From IMG/VR virus record IMGVR_UViG_2778261180_000005: a stretch of 36,121 bases of DNA, one strand, 5' to 3'. Each line of letters starts with the position of its first letter. Position 1 is the stretch's first letter. This DNA comes from a virus (Duplodnaviria > Heunggongvirae > Uroviricota > Caudoviricetes). A program made the translations under genes and the position numbers. This document shows positions 11,106 to 28,529 of this stretch, in pieces. The notes beneath the pieces were generated by a model, which was given only the letters and a program-made list of their open reading frames with translations, did no database searches and was not told where the DNA came from.

Positions 11106-11151
11106 GTTGAATACCTCCATGCTGTTATTTACTAGGCTTAGGGAGAAGGGA

Positions 11152-11805: not shown

Positions 11806-12365
11806 TATACATTCTCCACTAATTCGAATTTCATCTTGCCAATCTGGGCGATCTTCCAATCGATATTTTCAGTTTTGAGAACAAATTCACCTTCTACGTT
11901 CTGATACTTGATCACCTCACCCGCCAGGACGTTCTGACGCAAGTTAGGGAAGAGTTTCATTTCGCCACCTGATTTCACATCTTCGGTGATCGTGTAGATT
12001 TTCTTGTGGTTCTCAAACTGTACAATCGTTCCCGCTTTCAGTGTTCCGGTGAAGTTGGAGAGTCTTACCTTACGCCCACCGCGAGCAGTACCAGCAGCAG
12101 CCGTAACCATCTGGCGTACATCACCTGTATATTTTGAAAAGTAAGACAGTGGCACACTAAAAGGACGACCAAAAAGGTGACGTGCTACAAATTCTTTTAC
12201 TTCGTTAATATCCTGAGCCATGAAATTCGCGGTAAATTCTGCTTCGTAAAAATGGATGCCAGTAAAGCGACGTTGGAACTTACCAGAAATAGATTGCGCC
12301 TTGAAGAAAGGCTGTTTTGATTTAAGAGTAAAATCTGTGATTTTAATATTCTTGGATTTGAACAT
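11805..12365 (-). CDS. minor tail protein (gpM position), 186 aa
   Basis: Second ATG (12365) chosen: GGGGGC SD, and the first ATG is buried in the terminator stem. Confidence 0.55.
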   Translation of the reverse strand: MFKSKNIKITDFTLKSKQPFFKAQSISGKFQRRFTGIHFYEAEFTANFMAQDINEVKEFVARHLFGRPFSVPLSYFSKYTGDVRQMVTAAAGTARGGRKVRLSNFTGTLKAGTIVQFENHKKIYTITEDVKSGGEMKLFPNLRQNVLAGEVIKYQNVEGEFVLKTENIDWKIAQIGKMKFELVENV

Positions 12366-12367
12366 AG

Positions 12368-12414
12368 AAAAAGCCCCCATAGTTTTATGATTATTTATGA
12401 CTATGGGGGCTTTT
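12368..12414 (-). terminator. strong hairpin/terminator after the tape-measure gene, overlapping the next start region
   Basis: 14-bp perfect inverted repeat AAAAGCCCCCATAG...CTATGGGGGCTTTT with a 19-nt loop and a following U-run. Confidence 0.6.
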
Positions 12415-12416
12415 AA

Positions 12417-14846
12417 TTACATCTTACGGCGCTGTGCGTCTTCTACCGCCTGAGCAACTAACTTAGCGTGACGTTTGATAGCATCCATGACCATCTTGTC
12501 TGAGCTATTAACGTTGCCGTTAATGTTCAAAGGCGCATTAACTTCAATCGGCTGAGAGTTACCACCGCCTGATTTTTGAGCAGCAAGGAAGTCTTTCAAA
12601 TCACCGTTAGTACGCTGATCAACTACTCGTTCACCCTTATCAAGCAACCATGTACCCTCACGAGGGATGTTATCAATACCATCATGAGCCATACCGCTAA
12701 CGTTAGTAGACTTGATGTTTGCGATGCTCCCCATGTTCTGAGAAACAGCCAATGCAGCAGCCGCGATTTTTTGACCTGTGGTTACGTTGGTTGGATCGTT
12801 CCATGCATCGGTAGCAGCCGTCCACATGTTCACCGTCGCTTGTCCAATGGAGAATGCTTTATGAGCAGTGAAAGCCATCTGCATAGCTTTAGTGTTTTCC
12901 TGCCCGAAGAGAGTCATTGCAGCAGCAAAACCGCCATACATATCATCGGCTATTGACTGTCGAGCATCAGCATATTTCTTCTCAATTGCAGCCATTCGTT
13001 TTTGATGGTTTTCATTGAGTTTTTCTAATGCTTCCATCCGTTTAGCCGGATCGGTGATCCCATCAATCTTGAGTTTATCGGTTTTATAATCTTGTTCAGC
13101 GTCCGATTTCTCTTTATCGATTGCATTAAATTTAGCAAACGGGTTATTCGAGTCCTGATAATCTAAACCATTGGTCAACTGATTGGTTTTAAAACCATCC
13201 ATTCCCTGTAAAGAATTTTCAATCTGAGAATAGTTTTGCTCGGTATCGTTCACACGACGCATATATTCTTCGTAGGAGATAGCTTTACCATCAAGTAACC
13301 GTTTATGGCTTTCTAGCTCGTTGTCCCTTATTTGTTGCAATTGTGTTAAGGCATTCAAAGCATCAACCGGATCAGCACCTAAAACCATTTTGTATACGTT
13401 TTCAGTATTCTGATCGATTAAGGATTGGCGTTTCGCGGCTGCGTCTTGCTGAGAGATTAAGCCCAGATCTAAAGCAGTGTCCAAATCTTTCAAGCTGGCT
13501 TCTAACTGCTTGTTCTGAGAAGCAATAGACGCGGCGACCTGCCCTTGCAATTTAACATCAAGTGCATTCAGACGCTTGATTGCATCCTCACGTTCTTTCT
13601 GTGCTTTTTCTGCGGCTTCCTTAGCCTTTTTAGCTGCCTCTTCCGCTTTCTTGCGTGCTTCTTCTTCGGCTTTCTTCTCATTGCCAGACTTACCCAATGA
13701 TTCTGGTCTTACTGGTTTATTTGGTATAGTCAAATCACGGTTAGGATCTGCCTTGCGAGTTAGATGTTCCCCGTTATCGACAACAATCAGAGAGCCATTT
13801 TTCTTATAAGAATCACCAAAACGTTTCTTAAATCCTTCAACATCAAAGCCAGCAGTACGAGGATCGACACCAGCACCACGGATCGCGGCCTTTTCCCAAT
13901 CTGCCAGATTATTCCAACGCTTTTCTTTATTGTACTTGTCAATAATCTTTTGAGCGTCTTTATGGTTGGTGTTAAGAATACCACCAGTTGCGGTCTTGCC
14001 TTCTTTATTCAGTCGATCTAATGCCCTGAATAGAGAACTCTTTTCCCAATCAATATTAAACCAGTCAAATAGCCAGTTTAAGCTATCAACCAAAGGACCA
14101 GTAATGGTCATGCCGACACCTTTCAGGTTATTTTCCAGCTTATTAATATTCTGAGAAAATTTATCATATTTTTTAGCGTTTTCTTCGGTGACGTTAACAG
14201 ATTGATTCTGAATAGCGATCATCGCCTCTTGAGCACTATTATATTTCTCAAGCTGGCTGGTCATATGGCTTGAATCACTGGCTAAAGATTCCATCATGAA
14301 CTTGATTTCAGCCATTGATTTTCCGGCTTTCTTCATGTCATAGAACACTTGGATCGCCGCTTTCATACCACCTTGCGGATCTGTCATGAAGTGAGCATAG
14401 TTTTCTAACTTAAGGCCAACCGATTCTAAGTCATCAGCAATACCACCACCGTTAGCCCACGCATCACCCATCTTATCTAAGGTGTCTTTGTTGATATCGC
14501 CAAATTTTTCAACTGTTAAGCCAGTGCCAGAAAATTCCTTTTCCAGTCTTTGAAGGGATTCAATCGAGAGTCCGGTCGCCTTAGATACTTCTGAATACTG
14601 TTTAACGTATTCCGCGCCAGCTTTAGCGGCTGCAACCACTGCGGTCGCAACTAAGCCGATACCACCAGCAGCCAAACCAGCAGAGCCAGCGATCCCACGA
14701 AGAGACCCAGTCAGACCAGATAAGCCACCACCAAAATCAATATTACTTGCCTTTTCAGACAAACTATCGAGAAGGTCGGCGGCTTCATTGGTACTTCTCC
14801 TTAGACCTTTATTATCCCCTTCTATTGTTACTATATGTCTTGTCAT
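12417..14846 (-). CDS. tail tape measure protein (809 aa)
   Basis: Large coiled-coil-rich ORF downstream of the G/T chaperones; Lys/Glu/Ala repeats (KKAEEEARKKAEEAAKKAKEAAEKAQ); AAGGGG SD. Confidence 0.9.
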   Translation of the reverse strand: MTRHIVTIEGDNKGLRRSTNEAADLLDSLSEKASNIDFGGGLSGLTGSLRGIAGSAGLAAGGIGLVATAVVAAAKAGAEYVKQYSEVSKATGLSIESLQRLEKEFSGTGLTVEKFGDINKDTLDKMGDAWANGGGIADDLESVGLKLENYAHFMTDPQGGMKAAIQVFYDMKKAGKSMAEIKFMMESLASDSSHMTSQLEKYNSAQEAMIAIQNQSVNVTEENAKKYDKFSQNINKLENNLKGVGMTITGPLVDSLNWLFDWFNIDWEKSSLFRALDRLNKEGKTATGGILNTNHKDAQKIIDKYNKEKRWNNLADWEKAAIRGAGVDPRTAGFDVEGFKKRFGDSYKKNGSLIVVDNGEHLTRKADPNRDLTIPNKPVRPESLGKSGNEKKAEEEARKKAEEAAKKAKEAAEKAQKEREDAIKRLNALDVKLQGQVAASIASQNKQLEASLKDLDTALDLGLISQQDAAAKRQSLIDQNTENVYKMVLGADPVDALNALTQLQQIRDNELESHKRLLDGKAISYEEYMRRVNDTEQNYSQIENSLQGMDGFKTNQLTNGLDYQDSNNPFAKFNAIDKEKSDAEQDYKTDKLKIDGITDPAKRMEALEKLNENHQKRMAAIEKKYADARQSIADDMYGGFAAAMTLFGQENTKAMQMAFTAHKAFSIGQATVNMWTAATDAWNDPTNVTTGQKIAAAALAVSQNMGSIANIKSTNVSGMAHDGIDNIPREGTWLLDKGERVVDQRTNGDLKDFLAAQKSGGGNSQPIEVNAPLNINGNVNSSDKMVMDAIKRHAKLVAQAVEDAQRRKM

Positions 14847-14857
14847 AAATTACCCCT

Positions 14858-15199
14858 TTAACCGCTTCTGAGTTTCTCAAGCAAAGATGGATCAAACATG
14901 TTCAGCATTGCCGCTTTACGTTCTTCTTCTTTCTTGCGTGCAATTTCTTCCAGTTCTTCTTTAGTTTTAAAGAGTTTTTCTTCTCTAATTAATTGGAATT
15001 GGCTAGGCTTGAGTTTACGTGCAGTTTCGCGTGTCATTCCTTGCGACGTCATATACATGGAATATTGCAACATCGCATTCTGCATATCATGAAACGCGGG
15101 GCTTTGTGGTTCTAAGTAGGTGTCGAAAATGTATAATTTCCAAAACAGAGTGATTGGCATATTATCCATTTCATCTTTACTAAGCCCCGATCTCATCAT
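14858..15199 (-). CDS. tail assembly chaperone, T-like ORF, probably made as a G-T fusion by -1 frameshift
   Basis: No SD before its own ATG; its reading frame is open back to 18 nt upstream of the G stop; candidate slip site AAAG-UAA at the G stop. Confidence 0.5.
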   Translation of the reverse strand: MMRSGLSKDEMDNMPITLFWKLYIFDTYLEPQSPAFHDMQNAMLQYSMYMTSQGMTRETARKLKPSQFQLIREEKLFKTKEELEEIARKKEEERKAAMLNMFDPSLLEKLRSG

Positions 15200-15228
15200 T
15201 TGCCGGAAATAGAAATTCAGAAGCGGGT

Positions 15229-15537
15229 TTACTTTACCTCGTTTTCAATTACTGCCGGATCTTGCATCAATGACGCTTGAGCAACTAAACCGATTAATTC
15301 ACTTCGAACGTTAGTATACAGTGCCTTAACTTGTTCCATAGATTCAAATACTGGCTTACCGTCTTCATCTTCAATACAACGAAGAATAGAACGTTCATCA
15401 CGGTCTTCTTTATCAGTATTGAAAACATGTTCGTTAAATTCTTTTACTGACATAGGGCGAGCATAGAAAGTGAATCCACCGATGGTCAAAGATTCACGTT
15501 TCGGAGAGAGTGCGGCTAACATTTCATTAATATTCAT
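15229..15537 (-). CDS. tail assembly chaperone, G-like (102 aa)
   Basis: Conserved position between tail tube and tape measure; AGGAAA SD. Confidence 0.65.
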   Translation of the reverse strand: MNINEMLAALSPKRESLTIGGFTFYARPMSVKEFNEHVFNTDKEDRDERSILRCIEDEDGKPVFESMEQVKALYTNVRSELIGLVAQASLMQDPAVIENEVK

Positions 15538-15585
15538 TCTTGTTTCCTCTTAAGTTAATTCGATATGTTTATTTAGAATTGGAAA

Positions 15586-15612
15586 CAAAAAAGCCACCCC
15601 GAAGGATGGCTA
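15586..15612 (-). terminator. intrinsic terminator after the major tail gene
   Basis: AGCCATCC ttcg GGGTGGCT hairpin followed by UUUUUU on the minus strand. Confidence 0.7.
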
Positions 15613-15619
15613 GATAATA

Positions 15620-16093
15620 TTAGACGACTTTCTGGAAAACAGCTTGTTTAACCGGAGCACCATCTACTACAAAGGTGAAGGTACGGCCTACTACAGCATC
15701 CTCACCACCAGTCATGGTAGTTTTAGACAGGAAGCCGTTATAAGCGATATGTACACCAGATTTTTTCGTAGCATCGATGTAGTAAGCAATTTTAAGCTGT
15801 ACGCGCTTACCGTCTTCGGTTGCTTTAATCAGTTTTTCGTGTACTTCGTTACCCGGCATGTAGTTGATCGAAAGTTCGATATCCGGTACAGACATACGAC
15901 CAACCAGCTTACGGTTATAAGCACCAGAGAAGTTAGGAACATCGATCGTAGAACGTTCTACACCAGTTTCCGGGAACGCTGCGCATTCTGGGATTTCCAG
16001 ATAGGTTTCAGCATCAAGGTCTTTATTGCTTACGTCTTCTTGCAGAAACAGACCAACGAGGCCACCAGAGAAAATATCAAATTTAGTAGTCAT
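15620..16093 (-). CDS. major tail (tube) protein (157 aa)
   Basis: Immediately upstream of the G/T chaperones; AAGGAAAAG SD; followed by its own terminator. Confidence 0.7.
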   Translation of the reverse strand: MTTKFDIFSGGLVGLFLQEDVSNKDLDAETYLEIPECAAFPETGVERSTIDVPNFSGAYNRKLVGRMSVPDIELSINYMPGNEVHEKLIKATEDGKRVQLKIAYYIDATKKSGVHIAYNGFLSKTTMTGGEDAVVGRTFTFVVDGAPVKQAVFQKVV

Positions 16094-16147
16094 TATTCTT
16101 TTCCTTCTATTTTAAACAATAGGGCACATACCCGTAATTCTATTTAT

Positions 16148-16450
16148 TTAGCGGTTGCTCAAACGTCTATAACGAAGATGAGCGACCCCCCTATTTGTGC
16201 TAACGGTAATTACCGCCCCTTGCGGTGCAATACAAGAATGGATCTGTCCCCAATCATGCCCCTTATGGCTTCCAGAAACACAAAAACCATGAATAAACAA
16301 TTCAGAGTCACCGCCGCCACCACCGGAAGAATGAGCACAGAATGAAATAGTCCCGAAAGCGTCGGCTGTCCAACCGTTAGGAATATCAAACCATCCTTGA
16401 TTTGCTTTACCCGCCCTATTCCCCAAAGCGCCATCTACCCAAAATGCCAT
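16148..16450 (-). CDS. small Gly-rich protein, paralog 3 (FDIPNGW family)
   Basis: One of three tandem paralogs sharing M.xW...FDIPNGW...G-rich...(Y/H)FKF; start overlaps the upstream stop. Confidence 0.6.
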   Translation of the reverse strand: MAFWVDGALGNRAGKANQGWFDIPNGWTADAFGTISFCAHSSGGGGGDSELFIHGFCVSGSHKGHDWGQIHSCIAPQGAVITVSTNRGVAHLRYRRLSNR

Positions 16451-16755
16451 TAGTGCATTCTCCTGAATTTGAAATAATGCAATCCACCTTTACCCAATGT
16501 AAAGCTAACGGTAGCACCAGCGCCAACTAAAGAACTAGCGCCCCAACTTCCGGCATTACCAGCGTGATGACCTGATTCAATCAATCCATTTACAGCCAAT
16601 TCAGAATCAAGATCACCAGCACCGTTAATGGCTTCCATATGAGCAAAAACAATTCCGCATGAATCAGTGACCCAACCGTTGGGGATATCAAAATATCCAC
16701 CATTAGCCCAAATACTAATAGCGTTTGACATTCTTTGATTTATCCATCCAGCCAT
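16450..16755 (-). CDS. small Gly-rich protein, paralog 2 (FDIPNGW family)
   Basis: Tandem paralog, tightly packed with its neighbours. Confidence 0.6.
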   Translation of the reverse strand: MAGWINQRMSNAISIWANGGYFDIPNGWVTDSCGIVFAHMEAINGAGDLDSELAVNGLIESGHHAGNAGSWGASSLVGAGATVSFTLGKGGLHYFKFRRMH

Positions 16756-16757
16756 AA

Positions 16758-17054
16758 TTAAAACTCCATGAATTTAAAATATTCAACACCACCTTCACCC
16801 CCTAAACCAAAGGAGACGGTGCAGCCAGCAGGAACAAACGAATTTATAGTAGATCCCCAATTGGACCCACCACGACGACGAGCAACGGTCAAACCATCTA
16901 CGTTAATATGTGCATCAGACCATCCACCACCAGCATTATGACGCATGACAGCAACGCCAGCGCGAGCAGTACCATAGCCGTTAGGAATATCAAATACATG
17001 CCATTTTAAAGCATCGATTTTAGTATTAATTTCACTACTTACCCAATATCCCAT
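16758..17054 (-). CDS. small Gly-rich protein, paralog 1 (FDIPNGY family)
   Basis: Tandem paralog; AAGGA SD; preceded on the mRNA by hairpin GCGGGGA..TCCCCGC (17068..17085). Confidence 0.6.
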   Translation of the reverse strand: MGYWVSSEINTKIDALKWHVFDIPNGYGTARAGVAVMRHNAGGGWSDAHINVDGLTVARRRGGSNWGSTINSFVPAGCTVSFGLGGEGGVEYFKFMEF

Positions 17055-17091
17055 ATAAGAATCCTTAGCGGGGATTTCTCCCCGCTTCCAA

Positions 17092-20000
17092 TTACCCTAA
17101 TTTAGCTTCAATTGCAGCAAGACGTTCACGAAGAAGTTTATTTTCTTCGCTCATTTCTTGGACCGCTTTAATTAAAAGCGCGTTCACTGCGGAGTTTGAA
17201 ATTGTTAAAATTTCTTCTGGGTTATCAAGAGATCCGACATTAGAAGTGCTAACAGCTTCCGGTAAAATTTCTTGTAAATCCTGTGCGATAATACCAATCT
17301 CATGTGCGATGACTTCTCTGTCAGAAAGAGACTTAACTTTATCGTAGGTTTTAACTTTTAGTTTATTTACCTTATCTACCGCATTTTCTTCGTAGTCTTC
17401 AACGTTAATTTTCAGACGACGGTCGGAACGAATATAAACATCGTTACAGTAAACCGACGCACTAGATGTGAAATCACCATTTGCAGCCCATGAATACCAG
17501 CCGCCTTTGTTCATATGCATCATTACGGTAGCTTGACCACCGCCAGCATGAACACCCATTGCCGCAAGATGATCAACACCCCAATGAGTTGCTTTCCAAA
17601 TTGAATATGCTTGGGTATGTGAATCCTGACAATCTAAGAGAATACCAGCAGGACGGTTGCGCCAGTCATCCCATGCACCACCAGAAACCTCACCACGGAT
17701 AAGAGCGTATTCACCATTATATGGAACACGTTCTCCCGCTTTAATCATTGCACCCTGGAAGTGATGACTAAATGAACCCCCATGATTATTTCGTATATGT
17801 AAAATACCATCATCTGTAGCCCAGATAACAGCCTTTTCCGATTCGCTGTCATCTCTAAACCAGATATGGCGTGCACCAGTTGAGTTTTTGATGGTTATTC
17901 CGGTAGGTCCATGCACGGTCAAAGCACCAGCTACATCAAATAAAACGGTGTTATCTGTTCTACGTTCAGTATAGAAGTGATAACCTTTGGAATCGCCGAT
18001 TTCCATTACTGCCGCGCGTCCAACTTCTGAATTTCCCCAATTGTTGATAGAGAATCGTTCAGAGCTATTATTCATCTGATTTAGGTATAATGTACCGTCA
18101 GTGAATGTTTCGCCAAAGAATCTAGTTTTAATGCTATTGGTTCCGGTGCGTTCAAATTCGGCTAAAAATCCTTTTGAGTCACGAAGACTTAAAACGTTAT
18201 TTCGACCTGTATTGCTTGCCCCCCAATGGACGAGTTCCATATAGTCCATAGATTGACGAGAACCAGATTTAAATAAAAGGTTGTCTTCGAGACGAGTGCT
18301 ACCATCAATTCCCAGGTGCAAACAACGAGCGGTTTCAGTACCACCTAAATATAGTCCACCATCATCAAAATTATAGCTGAATGGTCTGCGATTATTCCAA
18401 CTACCAAAAGAATCTTTTAAATTGGTAGTAAGAATATGGAAGCTAGAACCGTCATTGCGTAACATCAAACCATAGTTACCGCCTTTAACAGCCAAACGAG
18501 CATTTTCAGATAATGCAACTTCGCTATTCATTACAATTTTCTGGCCTTTACCACCAGTAATATGTAATTCACCGTCTTCGATCAAATTTATCGAGTTTTG
18601 ACCGTTATCGTTCCACCAAATAAAATCTTTGGTCGTCAAATCACCAAAACCAAACCAGCCATTACGAACATCTTGACCAGTGCGATAATCCATAAAATTA
18701 AAATGGCTTGCTTCGTTTGGTCCTCGACGAATATCAATACCAGCATTAGAACCGGAACCTAAGCCACCATCGATGGTCAATCTACGAATATGCAAACCGG
18801 TTACAGCCGAAAGCAATAATTGTTGGGTTACATCGGTATATCCAGTAGCAAGACGATAATTTTGGTCATCAACACTTTCGTGCCAGATAGTGGCAGGAGC
18901 AGAACTACGGAAGCGACGCAACATCTTTTTAGCATTTGTCGGTTGTTCGTTCATATGCTCAATGTCGTATTGGCCTTGATGGTTTCCAGCAAAATTTAAC
19001 GTTCCACGGTTGCTAAAGTTATTGAACGATGAAATGTTAAGAGCATCAAAAATTTCATCTGCAACAGGTTTTTCACCACCCAGATATTCAGGAGTATCCA
19101 ACAGGTTTAAAGAAACACCACCGGAAGAAACTTGATATTCTGCTAAAACAAATCCTGTATGTGCACCGTAGTAAGCGTAAAGATCGTAATTATCACCATC
19201 GGTTGGAATAGCGCAAAAATGTTGTTCATAATGCCAAATAGTATAATACGCATTGAATACAACACCTTTCGGGCTATTGTTGCCGCATCGAATCACCAAT
19301 TCGATAATATTGGCTTGTCCATTCATCCCGACGTTATAACCGTTACCACCAACCAAACGGATCTTAGCGGTGCGACCGTGTTGCTGTGGCATTGTCAAAG
19401 TGCCTAGTTTAAACCAACCACCCTCGATCCCAAAATTAAGCGTCTTCTGGAACAGTCGGTCAATTTCTGCTTTCGAATATGCGCCAATTTCAGCCGGAGT
19501 AGGTTTATCGCCTTCATGATACATGCGGTGAGAATATGACAAGTTACCCAATTCATCGTAGCCGTATGTTCTTACCGTATGAACCGGATTAGACCCATAA
19601 GTGAACTCAAAGCCACGAGCATGATTAACACCAGATGGATGCGGAACATGCAAGATCATTGCAATATGACCCGCCAGGTCATTCATGCGGAATGCACCAA
19701 AGTAGTCAAGATTACGCGCACTCGGATCATCAAAATAGTTTGCGGTCTTAGACAACAAATAACCATCAGTATAAGTGTTTACGTGTTTTTTGATGTACTT
19801 GCCATCACTCGATCCGTCGGCTGCATCAATACGGCTTTCTAAGCGTGCCAGTTCAGAATCAGTGTAAGACTTGTTATTGTCAACTTTGCTATGAATTGCT
19901 GAATTTTTGGCTTCAACATCACGGGTTAATGCTGCGACGTTATCCGCTGCCTCTTGCTTATTAGCCGCAATCACACCAGTAAGGTTATTGTAGGTGTCAG

Positions 20001-20613
20001 TTAACTGATTTTCCGCATAGACTTTATTTGCTGCGATAGTGCGGTCAGTTTCTGTCTTAATCAGATCAACTTTGTCATTGATTGCTTTGTCATTACTTGC
20101 GATTGTCGCGTCGGTACGGGATTTAATATCATCAACTTTTTTATTGATGCGGGTGTCCAGTTCCTGAGTTGCTACAGCAGCCGCATTTTTATTAGCGTTG
20201 ATGGTATCCGACAATTCAGCTTTAACACCAGCAAGATCGGAAGCAGCTTTATTTTTATTAGCTTCGATTGTCGCGTCGGTTTCGCGTTTAATTACATCAA
20301 CTTTATTGTTAATTTCTGCATGATTTGCTGCGATAGTAGAATCAGTAGTTTGTTTAATTTCATCTACTTTAGCGTGAATATTGCGGTCATTTACTGCAAT
20401 TGTGCTATCCAATTCTTGTTTGTTAGCATCAACTTTAGATTCTAGTGCCGCGTGAGTTTCAGGAGAAACAGAGATTTGAACTACTTCATGATCTCGGTCT
20501 TTGGTAAAAATAACATGGTCTTTAAGGTTGATTGCCACCTCACCGACCTGTAATTGTTCCGGCGTTGGCTTTTTGCCAGAAACATTAGTTCGTTTAAATT
20601 GGATTGATTGCAT
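17092..20613 (-). CDS. side tail fibre with C-terminal intramolecular chaperone (peptidase S74-like) domain, 1173 aa
   Basis: N-terminus KPTPEQLQVGEVAINLKD; about six ~22-aa repeats (KVDxIKxxTDxTIxAN); C-terminus SDRRLKINVEDYE...GIIAQDLQEILPEAV typical of autocleaving fibre chaperone domains; GAGGTGA SD. Confidence 0.85.
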   Translation of the reverse strand: MQSIQFKRTNVSGKKPTPEQLQVGEVAINLKDHVIFTKDRDHEVVQISVSPETHAALESKVDANKQELDSTIAVNDRNIHAKVDEIKQTTDSTIAANHAEINNKVDVIKRETDATIEANKNKAASDLAGVKAELSDTINANKNAAAVATQELDTRINKKVDDIKSRTDATIASNDKAINDKVDLIKTETDRTIAANKVYAENQLTDTYNNLTGVIAANKQEAADNVAALTRDVEAKNSAIHSKVDNNKSYTDSELARLESRIDAADGSSDGKYIKKHVNTYTDGYLLSKTANYFDDPSARNLDYFGAFRMNDLAGHIAMILHVPHPSGVNHARGFEFTYGSNPVHTVRTYGYDELGNLSYSHRMYHEGDKPTPAEIGAYSKAEIDRLFQKTLNFGIEGGWFKLGTLTMPQQHGRTAKIRLVGGNGYNVGMNGQANIIELVIRCGNNSPKGVVFNAYYTIWHYEQHFCAIPTDGDNYDLYAYYGAHTGFVLAEYQVSSGGVSLNLLDTPEYLGGEKPVADEIFDALNISSFNNFSNRGTLNFAGNHQGQYDIEHMNEQPTNAKKMLRRFRSSAPATIWHESVDDQNYRLATGYTDVTQQLLLSAVTGLHIRRLTIDGGLGSGSNAGIDIRRGPNEASHFNFMDYRTGQDVRNGWFGFGDLTTKDFIWWNDNGQNSINLIEDGELHITGGKGQKIVMNSEVALSENARLAVKGGNYGLMLRNDGSSFHILTTNLKDSFGSWNNRRPFSYNFDDGGLYLGGTETARCLHLGIDGSTRLEDNLLFKSGSRQSMDYMELVHWGASNTGRNNVLSLRDSKGFLAEFERTGTNSIKTRFFGETFTDGTLYLNQMNNSSERFSINNWGNSEVGRAAVMEIGDSKGYHFYTERRTDNTVLFDVAGALTVHGPTGITIKNSTGARHIWFRDDSESEKAVIWATDDGILHIRNNHGGSFSHHFQGAMIKAGERVPYNGEYALIRGEVSGGAWDDWRNRPAGILLDCQDSHTQAYSIWKATHWGVDHLAAMGVHAGGGQATVMMHMNKGGWYSWAANGDFTSSASVYCNDVYIRSDRRLKINVEDYEENAVDKVNKLKVKTYDKVKSLSDREVIAHEIGIIAQDLQEILPEAVSTSNVGSLDNPEEILTISNSAVNALLIKAVQEMSEENKLLRERLAAIEAKLG
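20010..20470 (-). repeat. in-frame tandem coding repeats within the side-fibre gene
   Basis: Recurrent DNA blocks (such as CGATTGTCGCGTCGGT...ATCAACTTT) encoding the KVDxIK..TDxTIxAN repeats; coordinates approximate. Confidence 0.6.
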
Positions 20614-20688
20614 CTAATCACCTCACATAAAACAGGAATAAGGGAGGCGTTAACCTCCCCGCGTCATGTTTTATTTAGGAAGTGAATA

Positions 20689-21522
20689 CTAGAACTCACC
20701 GAAGTCGATCCGGTCATGGATAGAAACGGCTTCAATCTCGGCTGGTGTCGGTTTTTCTTCTGTGGAATACACTTTCACCCATCCCGAATTACCGTCTTTC
20801 TGGACTGTGCGAACTCGTAAACGTGGTGCGCCGGAAGCGGTGCAAGTTAATTGCCATCCACCATCTTCATTAGGTTGAACGTGAATTAGTGAAGTATCAG
20901 CACTAAATGGATTAGATGCGCTCGATCCCTGATAAGTTACGAAACGGTTTCCGGCTAATGCTTCACTATCAATCGGACCAGTGAATGGATGTACACCAGC
21001 ACCAATACCAAAATCACCTTGTCGCAGAATTTTTCCCTCGGTCGCTATACCCCTTGCTAGAATCCCGCCATCTGGTTCAAGTTTAAATTCCAGTGTTACA
21101 GCTTTGTTATCACTACCACGGGTTTTATGTGATGTGACGTAAGCATCATAGATGACATAGTAACCAGTGTTAGCAGCACTATAGCCAGAGTTCACAACAT
21201 AGAACATACGGAAGCGTAAAGGTGTTTTATCCTCTACCGCTTTCATCAACATTGCTTGATGTTCGTCATCCAGAACACGGTTTAACGTGAGTGTCGTCGG
21301 TTCCAGTTTACGATAACCAGCAAGTTTCCCCGTAGCGTCCTGATCATACTCTTCTAACGTCTGGATATCTGTAGATTCGGTTATCGTCGGGAATGCTGCG
21401 ATGTTCTCGATAGGACTAAATGCAGGATCGAAAAAGTCCGGCTGGTTATCCACCATAGTAGACACGGAGACTTCAACATGCGACCCCGTGAAAATGTCTA
21501 AGTTATCTTGTGTAATATTCAT
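20689..21522 (-). CDS. structural protein (277 aa), possibly fibre-associated
   Basis: AAGGGG SD; C-terminal EEKPTPAEIEAVS shares the KPTPAEI motif with the side fibre (DKPTPAEIGAYS). Confidence 0.55.
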   Translation of the reverse strand: MNITQDNLDIFTGSHVEVSVSTMVDNQPDFFDPAFSPIENIAAFPTITESTDIQTLEEYDQDATGKLAGYRKLEPTTLTLNRVLDDEHQAMLMKAVEDKTPLRFRMFYVVNSGYSAANTGYYVIYDAYVTSHKTRGSDNKAVTLEFKLEPDGGILARGIATEGKILRQGDFGIGAGVHPFTGPIDSEALAGNRFVTYQGSSASNPFSADTSLIHVQPNEDGGWQLTCTASGAPRLRVRTVQKDGNSGWVKVYSTEEKPTPAEIEAVSIHDRIDFGEF

Positions 21523-21531
21523 TATTACCCC

Positions 21532-21954
21532 TTAAAAACGCGCTAGATAAGAAAATTTAAGGCTAAGTGTCCCAACGATACCACCATCACTAGAATCATC
21601 GTCATAATCGGTATTAGAGGCTACTGGAGTGATATCTGAAATTGAGAAGCCCAAATCTTTAAAACGTGGGTTATCCGGCTGAATCTGGATTATCTGGCAA
21701 ATACCCTCATGAATTTTTGTTTCATGAATCTGAGAATATAATTGCATTTCGATAACACATTCAGCTTGCATTGCATTACCGCCACGAACACGCGTGTAAG
21801 TCTCATTCATTCCGGTGATCCAACAAACCACGTCATCACTAAAGCCTTGCTGAGTTTGTTCTACGTTTAAAGCCAGACCTAAATCTTGTTCGATAATATC
21901 TTGCAAGGCGCGTTTGATTTTCAGTCTAGGCATGTTATTAACGGTAGCGAGCAT
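21532..21954 (-). CDS. head-tail joining/neck-region protein (140 aa), hypothetical
   Basis: Start moved to ATG at 21954 (GGGGG SD); overlaps the upstream gene by 17 nt. Confidence 0.5.
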   Translation of the reverse strand: MLATVNNMPRLKIKRALQDIIEQDLGLALNVEQTQQGFSDDVVCWITGMNETYTRVRGGNAMQAECVIEMQLYSQIHETKIHEGICQIIQIQPDNPRFKDLGFSISDITPVASNTDYDDDSSDGGIVGTLSLKFSYLARF

Positions 21955-22228
21955 GTGTACCCCCTGCCAGAGTAATAAAGCAATCAGAAGTATTATCACC
22001 ATTGCGCTTAACGTATTGAACTTTGAAACGCTGATTTTCTACAATGACAATATCACCCTGCTTTAAGTCTCCCTCACGACAAAATAGAAATTCTGTTTCT
22101 GTCATTACCCCTTGTTCGTCGGTAGTAGTAATTTCATGATAAGCACGAATTGATTTACCACCTTCCACCGAAAATACAGGAGCACTTCGGAACATTCTTG
22201 ATAATTGTGATTCTGATAATTTGAACAT
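21938..22228 (-). CDS. head completion/connector-region protein (96 aa), hypothetical
   Basis: AAGGGGG SD; first gene after the capsid gene. Confidence 0.55.
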   Translation of the reverse strand: MFKLSESQLSRMFRSAPVFSVEGGKSIRAYHEITTTDEQGVMTETEFLFCREGDLKQGDIVIVENQRFKVQYVKRNGDNTSDCFITLAGGTHARYR

Positions 22229-22257
22229 AGTTACCCCCTTTATGGAGTATTTACATA

Positions 22258-22285
22258 CAAAAAAGCCCCACCGTTAGGCAGGGCT
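22258..22285 (-). terminator. partial terminator in the 200-nt structured region downstream of the capsid gene
   Basis: AGCCC...GGGCT stem followed by a U-run on the minus strand; further hairpins at 22308..22322 and 22384..22402. Confidence 0.45.
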
Positions 22286-22425
22286 AATTATTATTTTGCT
22301 TTCGGTGGACGTCCCACCTTTTTAGCTGTGGCTTTCGCCGTAACCGTCTGGGATTCTTCTTCCTGAGATGGAATCAGATTTTCTTCCCCCAAATCGGGGG
22401 AAGGTACAGAAGGTTCTACGCTAGT

Positions 22426-24405
22426 TCATTCGGAGATGTGAAGAACTTTCAGAGCTTCCGGCTGGGTTACAACATAGTCCAGATCTACCCAGATACGCGG
22501 AACGATAGCGGACTGTGCACGGTAGGTGGTGTCGTCCATATCCAGTTCCAGACCGCCCCACTCACCGATAGTAATACCGGAGAAGTCACCCAGAACGATG
22601 TGATCTGCCGGGATAACACCAGAAGTAACTACATCGTAACCAGCCAGTTTGCCGTTTTCGATGATATAACCGGAAACACCGTTATCTTTCAGGGTAGATT
22701 CCAGTTCAGCAGCAGTTGCACCGCTCATCGCAAACTTGATCGCCTGAGCAGGAACGCCAGCGTCGGTCAGTGCTGCAATTTCTTTCAGGAAGTCTTTGTA
22801 GCTGAAAGCGGCTTTCTTAGTAACACGGCTTGCATCAACCAGTTGTTTAACCAGACCAGCAGGACCGCGCTCATTGTCTTTGTCAGACAGAATCAGTTGT
22901 TCCAGTTTGATGCGAACAGCCTGGTTGATGTGATCAGTGATCAGGGTAGCGATACCCGGAACGGTTTTAATGCTCTGACGGCTGATCGGGTTGCCACCAG
23001 CAAAAGTCTTAGGAGACAGTTTCACGTTTGCAAATTCAGCTTTGCCTTCCGGTGCAGCACCGTTTTCATCAACGAAGCCGAAAGCGTCAACGCTGGATTT
23101 AGTCATTTTTGGAATAGCGGTCGGAGCAGTCAAGCCACTGTAAACAGTCACACCCAGACGACCCAGAACGGATTCCGGCATCAGCATTTCGATGTAGGAT
23201 TCAGTCAGCAGTTTTTCGTCGGTGATAGCAGTCAGGTCAGCTTTGGTGTTACCAGCAGCAGCAGCACGCATAGCAGCAGCAGGAACGAATACAGAGCCAC
23301 CACGAGCAGCACGACCACGCTGCATAGTTGCAGTAGCAGCCATTGCGGAATATTCAGCTTCATGAGCGCCGAGCACGTCGCCATCTACCAGGGAGCGGAT
23401 TACGTTATTAAGATCGAAAGTTTTTTCCATTTTAGAGTCCTTAATTTGTTGTTCGTTGTTACGTTGAGCAGTAGCGATTTTATTTAGTGCCTTAGTGCGG
23501 AATGCTTCCGGCGTCATGTCTTTAATTGCTAATGCGCGTTTCAATTCTTCGTCATCAATATTTAGTTCGCGTGCAATTTCGCGAATTTCTAATTCGTCTT
23601 CTTCGGAACGTTCAGCCACTTCTTCGATTTTTTCTTCTTCAATCGGAGCGGCTTCACGTTCTTCTTTTACTTCTTCTGCTTCCCGAACAGTTGAACTATC
23701 ATCATCAACACTTTCAGGATGTTCAGCGTCTTTTCCGTCTTCGAGATTTTCATCTTCTTTATTCTCTTCAACTTTCGGTTCTTTATTTTCTTCTACCGGA
23801 GTTTCTTCAACCTGAGCGGGTTCTTGTTCTTCTTTGATTTCTTCGATTTGTTCTTTAGTCATATCGCGTTTAGCCTCCAAATTAACTGTGATAGTATTTA
23901 GAGAGCGATTTAAACCGACCGTATCGTCAGCAGGAACTGTCACAAATGAAATTTCAAAGGGTGCCCACTTAGTAACAATCAATTGTCCTTTAGCGTAATC
24001 GATGTGATACTCTTTAATGTCATAGCCGACCGATATTTTTTCCATCGTACCTTCAATGACTTTATTACGAATATCATTAGCCAAAGTCCCATGCTTAGAG
24101 AATTTAACCAGAGCACGGCCTACGTTATCCGCATCGATTCGAGCGTTACAGACAACACCAATGTGATTATCGAAATTATGATTGAACAGCAACGGAGCGT
24201 TATTATTCAGGCGAGACAGATCAACCGCTTCCGGTGTATGTACCAGAATTTCATCTAATACCACCATTTCTTGATTTTGCTCATCCCAGAATTGGCGCTG
24301 GTAAGGCTGGGTACTGGAGAAAGCAATTTCAAATTCGTATTGATCGTTATGCCCTTCGTTAATAACTCCACCGTAACCGTTAAGATCGCGGCGAAATTTA
24401 AGCAT
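22426..24405 (-). CDS. prohead protease - scaffold - major capsid protein fusion (659 aa)
   Basis: N-terminal HK97-type prohead protease motifs (LLFNHNFDNHIGVV, KISVGYD, EISFVTVPAD); acidic linker; C-terminal HK97-fold capsid-like region; host-like codon usage; AAGGTGA SD. Confidence 0.8.
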   Translation of the reverse strand: MLKFRRDLNGYGGVINEGHNDQYEFEIAFSSTQPYQRQFWDEQNQEMVVLDEILVHTPEAVDLSRLNNNAPLLFNHNFDNHIGVVCNARIDADNVGRALVKFSKHGTLANDIRNKVIEGTMEKISVGYDIKEYHIDYAKGQLIVTKWAPFEISFVTVPADDTVGLNRSLNTITVNLEAKRDMTKEQIEEIKEEQEPAQVEETPVEENKEPKVEENKEDENLEDGKDAEHPESVDDDSSTVREAEEVKEEREAAPIEEEKIEEVAERSEEDELEIREIARELNIDDEELKRALAIKDMTPEAFRTKALNKIATAQRNNEQQIKDSKMEKTFDLNNVIRSLVDGDVLGAHEAEYSAMAATATMQRGRAARGGSVFVPAAAMRAAAAGNTKADLTAITDEKLLTESYIEMLMPESVLGRLGVTVYSGLTAPTAIPKMTKSSVDAFGFVDENGAAPEGKAEFANVKLSPKTFAGGNPISRQSIKTVPGIATLITDHINQAVRIKLEQLILSDKDNERGPAGLVKQLVDASRVTKKAAFSYKDFLKEIAALTDAGVPAQAIKFAMSGATAAELESTLKDNGVSGYIIENGKLAGYDVVTSGVIPADHIVLGDFSGITIGEWGGLELDMDDTTYRAQSAIVPRIWVDLDYVVTQPEALKVLHISE

Positions 24406-24450
24406 TTAATCACCTTTAATTAATTGGGGGCATTGCGCCCCCGTTGGTTA

Positions 24451-25962
24451 TTAGGGATCGGCTGGGGAATTTTTTTCTTCACCCTCGCCATTAACGATAA
24501 TATTTAGTGCGCTCTTTTCGGCTTGAATCTCTGAGAATACTTTTTCAGGATCATCACCACGTTCCAATATAACGGCAGTACGTGATTTAAGTCCGTTATC
24601 AATTAAAGCAATCTCGGCGCTTACGTCTTTAAATGGATCGACGGATTCAAAACGCGGACGGATAATAGTTGTATTATCGATAATATGCGGAATTGCAGTA
24701 ATACGAATCGGAACAATACCACGCGCGGAATAATGGCGTAGATATGCTTCGAAAATTGGCAATACCACTGTTTCAATTAATTTGTTTTGCAGTGCTTTAA
24801 CTCGTGTGCGCTGGGTTAATTCACCAAAACGTGCGGCTGAGTAGTTGATCTGGGAAGTGTCACCAGTCAAGCCCTGTTTAAACACGCCTAAGCCCATTGA
24901 TACGCTAGTAAACATCGCATCATTGAAGCTGTTAAAATCATCGCCTGATTGAGTAGATTGGATTGATTTAATCGTTGCCCCTTCCGGTAATTCCTGAATA
25001 GTACCTGGCGCGAAATCGTGAATAACTTCTGGCGCTTGATATTGTTCATCATCTTCACCAGTATCAAAATCGTCACCAGAATCTTTCGGACGCTCGATGA
25101 ACGCCATGTTACAAGCTGAAATTCGTTTCATGACCAGTACAGCTTCGCGGAATGCGTCTTGATGTGCGATATCCTTAATCACTGGCAGGAAGTCAGTCAC
25201 ACCACGTAAACTTTCCGCGCACAGTGGCTGGTAGTAGTGGCACACCTGAGAAGCATCTACGCGATAATTTTCGCCAGTGTAGGTCTGAGTCAGTAGATTG
25301 ATTTTTCTAAACCAGTATGCTACAGGGCGCATTGTGTCTACGTCATACTCAATCCCCTGATAGATCGCACGTTCTTTGCTTATTTCACGACTAAGCGACC
25401 AGTCGCACCTATCAGCAGACAGAATAGAAACTTGTAACTCATTGTTCTCTTTGGTTAAAACGATGAAGCATTCTCCACCCTGAACACGTTCAGATTCTGC
25501 CATTGCCAGCATTTCACGGAAGTTAAAGCGACCGTTGCGAGAGAAGCGTTTAGCACTCTGCGCCCACTTCCAGAAAGCATTCTCGATCTGCTTATTCAGT
25601 GCGGTGTCAAGTTTGCCATTTGATTTAACGATTGATGGTTTCGGATCAAGCCCCGTACCAACAACTTGGTCAACGATATACTGCTTGTATCGCTTACCTA
25701 CAGCATTGTTTATAGCCAGAGTACGACCCTGATCATAAAGGCGCTTACCGTTCGATTTGAGAGCCTTATTGAAGGTTCCTGTAATGGTGTCTTGTTGAAG
25801 CTGTCCATCAATGCGATCACCGACTAAGCCCAAAGAACGCTTAGACAAATCTTTCTGGAATTTTTCTACTTGTTTGTCGATAAAGATTTTTTGTTGTTGC
25901 TGGCGGTGATTAGTTTTAACTGGAGTTTCTACCGCCTTTTTGCGTCGAAAAAGATTAAACAT
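24451..25962 (-). CDS. portal protein (503 aa)
   Basis: Size and position between terminase and capsid; AAGGGG SD. Confidence 0.65.
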   Translation of the reverse strand: MFNLFRRKKAVETPVKTNHRQQQQKIFIDKQVEKFQKDLSKRSLGLVGDRIDGQLQQDTITGTFNKALKSNGKRLYDQGRTLAINNAVGKRYKQYIVDQVVGTGLDPKPSIVKSNGKLDTALNKQIENAFWKWAQSAKRFSRNGRFNFREMLAMAESERVQGGECFIVLTKENNELQVSILSADRCDWSLSREISKERAIYQGIEYDVDTMRPVAYWFRKINLLTQTYTGENYRVDASQVCHYYQPLCAESLRGVTDFLPVIKDIAHQDAFREAVLVMKRISACNMAFIERPKDSGDDFDTGEDDEQYQAPEVIHDFAPGTIQELPEGATIKSIQSTQSGDDFNSFNDAMFTSVSMGLGVFKQGLTGDTSQINYSAARFGELTQRTRVKALQNKLIETVVLPIFEAYLRHYSARGIVPIRITAIPHIIDNTTIIRPRFESVDPFKDVSAEIALIDNGLKSRTAVILERGDDPEKVFSEIQAEKSALNIIVNGEGEEKNSPADP

Positions 25963-25972
25963 GATTTACCCC

Positions 25973-26467
25973 TTATCGCGTAAGACGTACTTTAATATTT
26001 TTAATCGGGCTAATTCCCTGTTTACGTCGTTCGGCTTGAATTAATTTAGACAGTTGACGTTCATAATCAGTCTTTAATTGCTGGAGAACACCTAATGACT
26101 CATAGGCGAAAGTATTCCCTTTCACGGTCATTTGAGATAATGCGGCTTCGTCCCCAGATAAACGGGCGAAAATAACTTGCTCGATTAAGGCGATAGTTTC
26201 CCGCAGATATTCTTTTTTGGATTGTTTGGCGAATACTGGCAAAACAGTTAATTCCTGCATTGATACCAGTTCATCATCCAAAGTTATTACGATGGTATAT
26301 TTACCTTCGGCAAAATCTAAGGTTTTAATCTCATGATTAGCCGGAGTATCATCAACCTGATAAATGATACCTTTACTATTTCCTACCTGAATTGTTACAC
26401 CCTCTTCATTCGCCAGCGTGATTTTTTCGCCTTTACGAATTACTAAGGGAATTAGTTCTAAACTCAT
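25973..26467 (-). CDS. hypothetical head-associated protein (164 aa)
   Basis: Lies between the large terminase and portal genes; AAGGGG SD. Confidence 0.55.
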   Translation of the reverse strand: MSLELIPLVIRKGEKITLANEEGVTIQVGNSKGIIYQVDDTPANHEIKTLDFAEGKYTIVITLDDELVSMQELTVLPVFAKQSKKEYLRETIALIEQVIFARLSGDEAALSQMTVKGNTFAYESLGVLQQLKTDYERQLSKLIQAERRKQGISPIKNIKVRLTR

Positions 26468-26539
26468 AATTACCCCTTATTTAATTGTTATTGGATTAAC
26501 AATATTTAGGAGTAAGCCGCCCCGAAGGACGGCGAGTTA

Positions 26540-28444
26540 TTAGAACGATGTTACCCAACTACGGCCTCTATTTGGACGTCTGGCGATGTTTTTACGTTGT
26601 GGTCGTGTGATTGGCTTAGTTTCTTCGATTTTCTCGTCAGATTGCGATTTAGGAGCTTTTACGGGTTCTTCGACAACACGGTTTAAGCTGTCTTTCATTG
26701 CAATGAGTTTATCCCATGACATTTTTGAAAGGACGTAGCGAGAAGCCGCTGTAGCATACACGGCGCAGTCGAGCGCCTCGTTCCTAACGCCTGGGTTCTT
26801 TACCCATCTCACGCCAGTAGTAGTACGCTTGACAGATTCACTTAAAAGCTGATCGAGATAATCATCAGGAACGGTGTCTGATATTTCTAAGCCAATATGA
26901 GGATTATCTTTCAGGTTCCTAGCCAACATTTCACGAAATGCAGTTTTACCCACATTAACACCCAACATAAGCAATTCATGACCACCTGTGCGGGTAGGTT
27001 TAACCGGAATGATCGGAGCGTTACCAGCAGAACTACCTTTGATAGCGTGTAAGTTCTTCCACTTGCCGCAAATACGGTATCCAGCTTGAGTGAATCGACC
27101 GTTCGATGTATCAAGGAAGCTGGCGAGCATAGGAACACGATCACCCGATACAGTAGTAAATTTGGTTTTATGGAAGTTGATTAATCTATCCCATACAGGG
27201 GATTCATATCGTTCACAGTTATGATCGTAAAAGCTGCGATGATCCAGAATATAAATCTTATCCTTTGCCACGCCCATGATTGTAGTTTCTGCGCGATCTA
27301 ATTGCTGGTCGGTACCCGCACACAAGAAAATCACGTCATCAGGGATATTCTCGATAGAAACATCTGTTTTTAGTTGTTCCAGTTCATTTGCTTCTACTGC
27401 CGTGTCCTGATCGTCGTATACCTTGCCTAACACGGTGTTATAAAATGATTGTAAATCAAAGGATTGCCACGCATGGCTAAAATCAACCACACAAGCGCGG
27501 ATCGTGCTGAAAGGTGAATACAGACGGCTGATCCAGAATCCTGCTACCTCACTTTCACGGGTTGCTCTCCACTCGCCTTGTGCTACTGCCCTGATTCGTT
27601 CCCCTTCGGTCCATGCGTTCTTACAGTGGGGGCAAATATAACGAGCGGTATCAGGATCGGGTAAGTTCTTACCATCGATGTTACGCCATTCAAATTGAAC
27701 GTTTTCCCACTCGATCACCTGGTGTTCCCCGCAATGAGGACACGGAACAAAAAACATACGCATATCACTTGATAACCATTGCTGGTTAATGCTTCCGAGC
27801 TTACTGGTCGGGGTACTGGATACGACTAATCGGCCTTCATCGCCAAAGGTAGTTAAACGGTTAGCAGCCAGTGCCACCGGATCACCTTCTTCTGAGGCTG
27901 TAGCAGCATCGATTTCGTCAAGCAATCCAACCTTTGCGGTCTTACCGCGTAGGGTTGATGGACTAGTAAGCGATACCATATAAAGGAAGTGGTTTGATTT
28001 GAGCTGGAGCTGATTGTTGTTATTAACAGAATTGCGATCATTCTTGTCTGTAACCACGTCTTTTAATGCATCACATGCTTCGATAGACGGTCGGATCTTA
28101 CCCGCGAGATATTGAGACATTTCTTTAGCGGTTGATTGTCCGATAATCATATTGCATGGATCGTTAGCCATCTGGTTAAACAGGATACCGTTTAGGATGG
28201 TAGTTTTTCCGATCTGCGCACTGGTCATCAGTACATACTTTTTCTTATTCTCAAGGAAAGGAGCATCAATCATGCCTTTCTGGAATGACAGCAATTTAAC
28301 TTTATCCCCCGCTTGAGGACCATCTACCAGCACCATATTCGCTTCGCACCATTCAGAAGGAAGGAGTTTAGGCGGTGGCGTAATATATTTGGCTGCATTT
28401 TTGAGAATCTTTTTTAATTTGGCCTTATTAGAAATCAGTTTCAT
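26540..28444 (-). CDS. terminase large subunit, lambda gpA family (634 aa)
   Basis: Walker A (SAQIGKTT); gpA-like motifs [30 protein letters not shown]; GAGGGT SD. Confidence 0.9.
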
Positions 28445-28515: not shown

Positions 28516-28529
28516 TTAAAGGGGGGTGT

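Follow-up and report, generated by a model that had tools for sequence, protein, structure and literature searches.

A gp37-type fibre and a tail-tube paralog with a gp36-type end form a probable T-even-like side-fibre cassette in a lambda-like prophage

The virus record IMGVR_UViG_2778261180_000005 is a stretch of 36,121 nucleotides (nt), analysed here as a whole and called the window. Within a set of lambda-like late genes, its minus strand carries a fibre cassette consisting of a 277-amino-acid (aa) protein, which we call the adaptor, a 1173-aa fibre and three small tandem paralogs (coordinates in Table 1). Both large open reading frames (ORFs) were found on that strand at the positions given in a preliminary description of this DNA. 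Here we describe what the cassette encodes and how its products might be mounted on the tail.

As judged from sequence comparison, the 1173-aa protein is a full homologue of T-even gp37, with an N-terminal domain, an inserted coiled coil, a shaft and an S74 domain. Its residues 285-1173 aligned with residues 71-954 of gp37 from the Krischvirus phage G37-3, a distal long-tail-fibre subunit of 954 aa, at 79% identity over ~890 aa, and the protein matched phrog_1699 with an expect value (E) of 1e-132. The fibre N-terminus, expected to be conserved, proved to be a gp37-type domain at aa 1-52. Residues 1-58 were 36% identical to aa 4-63 of G37-3 gp37, and the domain is the same as that at the N-terminus of T4 gp37. 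A tblastn search gave 1088 phage records with this domain; those listed or inspected were T4-like without exception, and the proteins were mostly annotated as the distal long-tail-fibre subunit.

The S74-type chaperone predicted for the fibre C-terminus was recovered as a Pfam Peptidase_S74 match (PF13884) over aa 1063-1121, with E 2.4e-14 and 53.8 bits against a cut-off of 22. The alignment proposed for locating the catalytic serine and lysine placed S1063-D-R-R-L-K1068 opposite SSDRRIK in the gp37 fragment of Salmonella phage S16 (PDB 6f45), and the domain also aligned with the auto-processing domain of MYRF (7dc3). This Ser/Lys signature predicts release of the S74 domain at Ser1063. S74-bearing gp37 proteins are already known as a class in T4-like phages (PMC12143355), and the fibre itself is an ordinary member of that class. 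What differs is its setting: neither gp34 nor gp35 was found at the locus, and the gp37-type fibre stands in a lambda-like module, not in a gp34-gp35-gp36-gp37 locus.

Between the N-terminal domain and the shaft lies a helical repeat insert. Four strict KVDxIKxxTDxTIxxN units occur at fibre aa 82, 104, 159 and 181, and self-similarity reached 31% identity at a lag of 22 aa, with peaks at 22, 33, 44 and 55 aa, all multiples of 11. At the DNA level, five in-register copies of 48 nt with a spacing of 66 nt were 65-73% identical. The earlier count of about six 22-aa repeats visible in the DNA was thus roughly right, with four strict copies in the protein and five degenerate ones in the DNA; Tandem Repeats Finder, run on positions 17000-21600, did not score the 66-nt array.

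The adaptor is a tail tube paralog fused to a gp36-type module, not a neck protein. Its residues 11-154 matched phrog_158 ('major tail protein', E 8.9e-9), the family of the 157-aa tube protein encoded on the other side of the cassette, and the paralogy between the two proteins was detectable across loci. In the AlphaFold2 model, the predicted local distance difference test score (pLDDT) was 80-93 over most of aa 15-160 and lower in aa 51-70 and 111-120. The best Foldseek match of this domain was the lambda gpV tube (8k36_A; E 2.4e-7, target-normalised template modelling score 0.60), followed by the 80alpha and monocin tubes. The tube-gene slot upstream of the G/GT and tape-measure genes is held by the 157-aa protein, not by the adaptor. 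We rejected an assignment of the 277-aa protein as the tail terminator, the lambda U position, as the neighbouring 140-aa protein has the gpU fold and the best folds of the 277-aa protein are tubes. The profile of the 277-aa family had no match among PDB sequences, and a search of genome contigs with the adaptor profile returned no relatives.

The C-terminal part of the adaptor had as its best PHROG match phrog_16472, the Krischvirus gp36 family, aligned to the C-terminal end of that profile (E 0.006). A 482-aa homologue (P0083) matched the same family with E 7e-20 and also matched PHROG 158. By BLASTP, the last 28 aa of the adaptor, KVYSTEEKPTPAEIEAVSIHDRIDFGEF-COOH, were 50% identical (E 1e-5) to the last 28 aa of G37-3 gp36, ELYHEGHKPTPAEVGAVPLNAVIDFGTF-COOH. 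The N-terminal region of gp36 (MADLK.GST.GG…), on the gp35 side, is replaced in the adaptor by the tube-fold domain; the adaptor contains a gp36 module yet is not a gp36. Its RIDFGEF-type ending was unique to it among the 128 six-frame segments of the window. Among 19 homologues of 40-90% identity, invariant residues included G158, G163, G169, G172, G174, G176, K257, P258, D273 and G275. The family as a whole (40-97% identity) came from Escherichia coli, Shigella, Salmonella, Providencia, Edwardsiella, Proteus and metagenomes.

According to published work on T4-like phages (PMC3004832), gp37 is bound through its N-terminal region by a trimer of gp36. The ending DFGx[FY]-COOH was found on gp36 in five T4-like phages of different hosts, two of them from named genera that the others do not share, with ends such as …VQDFGYY in T4, …IQDFGLY in Thanatos-1, …ILDFGTF in Acinetobacter phage PhT2 and …IIDFGSY in Klebsiella phage KMI10; the fifth phage is G37-3. 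In all five, gp36 is followed by a gp37 with the IQF[KL]R…GE/ALAIN domain. The elements that co-occur at the adaptor-fibre loci are the same two: the extreme C-terminus of the adaptor (…IDFGEF-COOH), here termed the plug, and the gp37-type N-terminal domain of the fibre, the socket. The idea that the 277-aa protein is a fibre adaptor is therefore supported by this pairing of a gp36 tail with a gp37 N-terminal domain and not by the heptapeptide KPTPAEI, through which it had been proposed.

We examined this co-occurrence in 84 related loci from IMG/VR and a protein collection, comprising 1090 ORFs on the matched strand, using the C-terminal pattern [IVLMQ][DN][FLA]Gx[FYL] for the plug and clustering adaptors at 70% identity. 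The pattern ended 61 ORFs: 59 recognisable adaptors, one truncated adaptor and one extension piece in Proteus. Every socket-bearing ORF (57/57) was directly preceded by a plug-ending ORF, and all 11 plug-bearing adaptor clusters had an adjacent socket. The single plug-less lineage, a 563-aa tube-domain fusion of the L064 type, was followed by a 940-aa protein that has no socket. In these loci (L064-L087, e.g. L064:7313-11823) the fusion gene overlaps the gene of the 940-aa protein, which had no Pfam match, and the lineage seems to use a similar anchor for a different fibre or spike system.

The plug was kept over adaptor lengths of 275-1209 aa. Proteus mirabilis has a three-part chain, in which an adaptor ending in …EEIDFGEF is followed by a 198-aa protein with a socket, fibre-like repeats and a plug (…LIMDFGTF), and then by a 675-aa fibre with a socket; the 198-aa protein is a separate counterpart of the repeat insert. 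Plug and socket also vary together in some degree. Plugs with DFG went with F in the socket, those with DLG with F, I or M, and those with DAG with HY, in a tally that ignores kinship. This pairing of variants hints at possible covariation or compensatory change across the proposed joint. At L046 and L060, adaptors ending in …LDAGEF precede fibres starting with …K[VR/VK]HYRTK rather than …IQFKRT.

The distal part of the cassette is closely related in DNA to a lytic phage. Window positions 16132-19527 were 87% identical to the T4-like Krischvirus phage vB_EcoM_G37-3, with 98.7-99.7% identity in the small ORFs, 94% in the S74 region and 3' end, and 67% near nt 19400. The edge of this megablast match at nt 19527, just upstream of the KPTPAEI codons, was considered as a recombination junction and dropped, since gp37 homology runs on to aa 285 and resumes at aa 1-58. 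In the related E. coli prophage of strain UTME-9, the fibre tip differs (nt 17148-18113), which marks the distal fibre end as a hot spot of swapping. Elsewhere in the window (3829-4243), 415 bp were 99.5% identical to the inner part of the 726-bp Krischvirus gene inh ('inhibitor of prohead protease'). This piece sits in a 150-aa ORF of the prophage accessory region and is either a very recent capture from a lytic T4-like phage or a functional fragment that has been kept. Exchange of fibre parts between T-even and lambdoid phages has long been known. Among T4-type phages too, fibre parts are exchanged and fibre genes are mosaic (PMC3157838).

The three small paralogs share 25-38% identity with one another and a conserved FDIPNG. 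In G37-3, three small ORFs likewise lie between gp37 and the holin gene, the place of gp38 in T4. The paralogs had no Pfam or PHROG match. Their homologues formed only 11 clusters, all annotated 'hypothetical', and were confined to four distinct T4-like phages and to E. coli, Shigella and Salmonella genomes, probably as prophages. We consider them candidate tip adhesins or assembly factors; three small proteins beside a trimeric self-cleaving tip might form a heterotrimeric cap. The slot after the fibre holds other proteins in relatives. An Edwardsiella relative has there a protein with the Pfam domains Gp38_N/GP38, and in some relatives the protein in the slot ends like the fibre of locus L003. 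The position of the accessory gene is not fixed: at L020 and some 20 E. coli loci like it, the tube gene, and not the fibre gene itself, is followed by that of a 168-aa protein, which phmmer related weakly (E ~1e-9) to the gp38-type protein of Edwardsiella.

When 1.84 billion representative proteins were scanned in full with the adaptor profile (HMMER), 153 matched below 1e-10. More than 100 of these protein clusters, 560-1560 aa long, are whole fibres whose first 240 residues consist of the tube-like domain and linker, and some of them end in S74 domains (P0124, P0160). Long adaptors of ~1200 aa keep the plug (P0111 …FDEGTF, P0112 …IDAGTF), and in P0118 the tube domain is followed, as seen by eye, by a near-complete T4-like gp36. 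Such fused forms support the view of adaptor and fibre as one continuous fibre rooted in a tube-fold domain. The lineage has a single record in the phage collection: DCP80 (PQ671644.1, L093), a 141-kb Escherichia phage record classed as a T4-like Gaprivervirus, whose nt 1-18560 are a siphovirus-type module with terminase, portal, capsid, terminator, 698-aa adaptor, fibre, tube protein and tape measure. The record is probably chimeric, an induced prophage having been assembled into it.

Taken together, these findings suggest that the cassette encodes a distal half-fibre of T-even type and that the tube-paralog adaptor fixes it to a lambda-like, non-contractile tail, a reading to which we assign a probability of roughly two in three. 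In this arrangement, adaptor subunits would probably make up a ring aligned with the tube, and the C-terminal extension of each would be the putative gp36-type module that ends in …KPTPAEIEAVSIHDRIDFGEF-COOH. The N-terminal domain of the fibre would most likely dock on the C-terminal modules of the adaptor once these have trimerised, so that each hexameric ring would carry two fibre trimers. The ~230-aa helical repeat segment would lengthen the fibre. At the far end, the S74 domain would aid folding and trimerisation of the tip before cutting itself off at Ser1063. The tip thus exposed may be where the three proteins of the gp38 slot work, either as adhesins or in assembly. The distal half-fibre of T4 is ~70 nm long. 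With this value and those of lambda, in which a tape measure of 853 aa goes with a tube of 132.7 nm (PMC12617516), the tail would be very roughly ~125 nm long and the fibre ~80 nm. As for the site of the ring, gene order would suggest a place just under the terminator, and function together with the lambda and T5 precedents (PMC12617516) would suggest the distal end of the tail.

An alternative is that KPTPAEI itself is the docking or adaptor motif, by which adaptor and fibre would recognise one another or some shared partner, as the preliminary description had it. The heptapeptide is indeed common to both, whose genes are adjacent, and it is identical despite differing DNA (16/21 nt, and 31/54 nt over 18 codons). 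It is also kept in adaptor homologues, with K257 and P258 invariant and T259 nearly so. The match is not a chance one, since similarity between adaptor and fibre spans 81 aa including it (27% identity, E 0.002, BLASTP). However, KPTPAEI belongs to a wider signature, Y-x-x-x-x-[KN]-P-[TS]-[PA]-x-[ED]-[ILV], that recurs inside single fibre proteins, with four copies in G37-3 gp36, three in the long adaptors (KPTPAEI occurs threefold in homologues of 465-482 aa) and one at the C-terminus of T4 gp34 (NPPQPSDIGALP). In G37-3 gp37 it takes the form KPSPSEL. The fibre of UTME-9 has KPSPSEL where the window fibre has KPTPAEI, whereas the adaptors of both have KPTPAEI. The L003 fibre has no such motif though it is preceded by an adaptor, and the Proteus 198-aa piece has it only within its N-terminal socket and none ahead of its C-terminal plug, yet both proteins stand within the chain. 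In the window fibre, moreover, the motif lies at aa 370, past the coiled coil and ~370 residues from the N-terminal attachment end. The recurrence, the UTME-9 variant and its absence from L003 point to common descent of a module rather than to a specific docking pair. By sequence comparison, KPTPAEI is a generic signature closing modules in T-even fibre proteins, and we regard its role as a shared docking motif as highly improbable.

The tube fold of the adaptor would also fit a decorated second tube subunit, the fibre-like C-terminus being decorative and the fibre attached elsewhere, for example at the tip complex. C-terminally decorated tube proteins are well known, as in the Ig-like (immunoglobulin-like) domain of lambda gpV (PMC12617516), and a terminator-like hairpin follows the adaptor gene as it does the capsid and tube genes. 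We consider this unlikely, however, given that the adaptor C-terminus is homologous, to the last residue, with the tail of gp36, whose gene stands before that of gp37 in T4-like phages, that the plug pairs perfectly with socket-bearing fibres, and that extensions reaching ~1200 aa are still plug-ended while fusions of the tube domain to whole fibres exist. The canonical tube protein of L003, furthermore, already has an additional C-terminal domain of its own, Ig-like by eye. The cassette might instead be a by-product of recombination, in which a T-even cassette came to lie beside a duplicated tube gene with a gp36 remnant that has no attachment role. The recent exchange of DNA with Krischvirus is clear from the small ORFs and the inh fragment, and fibre genes are notoriously mosaic (PMC3157838). 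Against this, the fusion is kept from E. coli through Salmonella, Providencia, Edwardsiella and Proteus to metagenomic lineages at 40-97% identity, with D273, G275 and the Gly-rich linker invariant and the plug retained over the full range of adaptor lengths, and we therefore find it very doubtful.

Several points weigh against a half-fibre mounted through the adaptor. The gp36 score of the window's own adaptor is weak. AlphaFold2 modelled the second half of the adaptor poorly (pLDDT 30-65), which is unsurprising when a trimeric module is predicted as a monomer, and the fold of this half is therefore tentative. A hexameric ring feeding trimeric fibres needs a putative adjustment of symmetry. 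The gp36 proteins of G37-3 and T4 had no sequence match among solved structures that could show their contact with gp37 at residue level. The co-occurrence of plug and socket could partly reflect inheritance of the gp36 C-terminus and gp37 as a block. Finally, the search for a cultured, imaged phage of this lineage found none, DCP80 being the only record in the phage collection.

The late genes of the window follow a lambda-like order: gpA-type terminase, portal, protease-capsid fusion, 96-aa, 140-aa and 277-aa proteins, then the fibre, the three small ORFs, the 157-aa tube protein, G/GT-like proteins, an 809-aa tape measure and a J-like tip. The 96-aa protein had a weak Pfam match to Phage_attach (head-tail attachment). 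The J-like protein (6910-10686) bears Phage_Tail_Tip and Ig_GpJ_C, which bears out the claim that the element has a second fibre system. On its predicted structure, the 140-aa protein is a tail terminator: its AlphaFold2 model (pLDDT 77) matched lambda gpU (3fzb, 3fz2, 8iyd), T5 p142 and the pyocin collar in a Foldseek search of the PDB, all with E ~1e-5. By sequence, it had no Pfam match and no match in a PDB profile search, hhalign against gpU gave E 0.016, and its orthologues had weak PHROG matches to 'tail terminator'. The 157-aa protein matched phrog_158 with E 6.7e-20, and Phage_TTP_12 and Phage_TTP_11 in Pfam under the cut-offs. With the 140-aa protein as terminator, the cassette is placed between the terminator and tube genes, as it was in every relative examined, and each of these had a separate canonical tube gene ahead of the G/GT-like genes. 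The fibre had been described as inserted between the neck genes and the tube gene; neck-side genes and the canonical tube do flank the cassette, but the gene just before the fibre is a tube paralog, itself preceded by the terminator gene.

On the minus strand, hairpins comparable to the G+C-rich stem-loop in the adaptor-fibre gap occur after the capsid gene as well, at 22264-22285, and after the tube gene, at 15592-15611. In the whole window, 14 terminator-like sites were counted against 5.7 ± 2.1 from shuffles, and such hairpins may tune the relative dosage of late proteins. Window positions 19600-36121 had no megablast match among 50,697 phage records and the element is about 93% identical to an E. 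coli prophage present in 16 of 5,426 complete genomes, including strain UTME-9. The UTME-9 prophage, of ~36 kb and ~94% identity, interrupts hicB and encodes a serine recombinase. Given this split of hicB, the window appears to cover nearly the whole prophage.

Table 1. Features of the fibre cassette and of other genes in the window (36,121 nt); plug and socket as defined in the text.
Feature	Position	Strand	Remark
Source window	1-36121		virus stretch
Fibre cassette	16148-21522	minus	
Adaptor gene, 277 aa	20689-21522	minus	
Adaptor tail-tube-protein-like N-terminal domain, aa 1-160	21043..21522	minus	
Adaptor C-terminal part, aa 161-277 and stop	20689..21042	minus	conserved Gly-rich linker and gp36-type fibre module
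C-terminal plug RIDFGEF-COOH, adaptor aa 271-277	20692..20712	minus	equivalent to gp36 C-terminal tail
KPTPAEI in adaptor, aa 257-263	20734..20754	minus	
Fibre gene, 1173 aa	17092-20613	minus	
gp37-type N-terminal domain (socket), fibre aa 1-52	20458..20613	minus	IQFKRT…GEVAINLKDHVIFTKD
Helical repeat insert, 22-aa units, fibre aa ~55-284 (~225-230 aa)	19762..20451	minus	lacking in Krischvirus gp37
gp37-type shaft and tip, fibre aa 285-1062	17428..19761	minus	KPTPAEI at aa 370-376; Gp34_trimer at aa 647-747 (Pfam)
KPTPAEI in fibre, aa 370-376	19486-19506	minus	
S74 intramolecular chaperone, fibre aa 1063-1173	17092..17427	minus	predicted self-cleavage at Ser1063, with Lys1068
Three tandem paralogs, ~100 aa	16758-17054, 16450-16755, 16148-16450	minus	gp38 slot of T-even phages
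Terminator-like G+C-rich stem-loop, weak T tail	20641..20660	minus	in 75-nt adaptor-fibre gap
Tail terminator (lambda gpU-like; from predicted fold), 140 aa	21532..21954	minus	neck-side limit of fibre cassette
Canonical major tail tube protein, 157 aa	15620..16093	minus	directly upstream of G/GT-like and tape-measure genes
Large serine recombinase, 564 aa	995-2689	plus	
Protein with CapR homology domain, 197 aa	4278-4871	plus	

The closest known counterpart of the cassette is the distal half-fibre of T4 and T2 (gp36-gp37-gp38), of which the S16/T2 type has a cleaved S74 domain capped by gp38. The fibre resembles it in its gp37 N-terminal domain, its shaft, with the high identity to Krischvirus gp37, and its S74 C-terminus, which aligned with S16 gp37. 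As in T-even phages, a gp36 tail ending in …DFGx[FY]-COOH stands directly before the gp37-type gene, and an adhesin or assembly slot follows that gene, filled by a true Gp38_N/GP38 protein in the Edwardsiella relative. Unlike in T-even phages, gp34, gp35 and the N-terminal part of gp36 are lacking here, the end of gp36 is fused to a lambda-like tube paralog, a ~230-aa helical insert follows the N-terminal domain, and three small paralogs take the place of gp38.

Other likenesses are to phages with flexible tails. Like lambda (Ur-lambda) with its side fibre Stf, the element has a lambda-like non-contractile tail with adsorption side fibres in addition to a central J fibre. Stf binds OmpC much as T4 gp37 does, and it anchors itself, its 12 N-terminal domains forming a collar round the gpV-gpM junction (PMC12617516). 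The cassette, by contrast, has a gp37-type N-terminal domain and a separate tube paralog as candidate anchor, a distinction drawn from the published description of Stf. In T5 (L-shaped fibre pb1, collar p132), and in DT57C (LtfA/B-LtfC), a side fibre on a siphovirus-type tail is likewise hung from a dedicated anchor protein and not from the N-terminus of the fibre. T5 pb1 also has an S74-type self-cleaving chaperone. The T5 anchor, however, is by its description a dodecameric p132 collar round the tube, not a tube fold with a fibre stub, and the T5 system is without the gp36/gp37-type joint. The adaptor further resembles lambda gpV in having a tube-fold N-terminal domain and an extra C-terminal domain outside the tail. 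SPP1 gp17.1* is another tube protein with a C-terminal extension. Unlike gpV and gp17.1*, in which the major subunit is decorated, here a separate paralog bears a fibre module that ends in the joint peptide.

Neither a fibre root with a tube fold nor a pair of gp36 tail and gp37 N-terminal domain outside T4-like phages was described in the literature searched, the coverage of which was limited. It may be that tube-paralog fibres are a widespread, apparently undescribed third mount for side fibres, besides Stf and p132, and that the gp36-tail/gp37-N-domain pair is a portable plug-and-socket joint by which distal fibres, extension pieces and adhesin sets are swapped between unrelated tails; for this wider view we hold the balance to be even. 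The idea of a portable joint draws on the DNA that an E. coli prophage and lytic Krischvirus phages have exchanged, at 99% identity. Temperate prophages and lytic T4-like phages that infect the same host may in this way pass receptor-binding parts to one another. The joint occurs split, fused or chained and therefore looks modular, making it a candidate for plug-in engineering of host range, and the cassette offers a defined peptide pair with which it can be tested. The analysis also corrects the annotation of a prophage family labelled almost throughout as 'hypothetical protein'. For few phages, lambda and the T5 family among them, is it known how a flexible tail holds its side fibres, and a tube-fold anchor with a T4-type joint would, if true, be a different solution from theirs.

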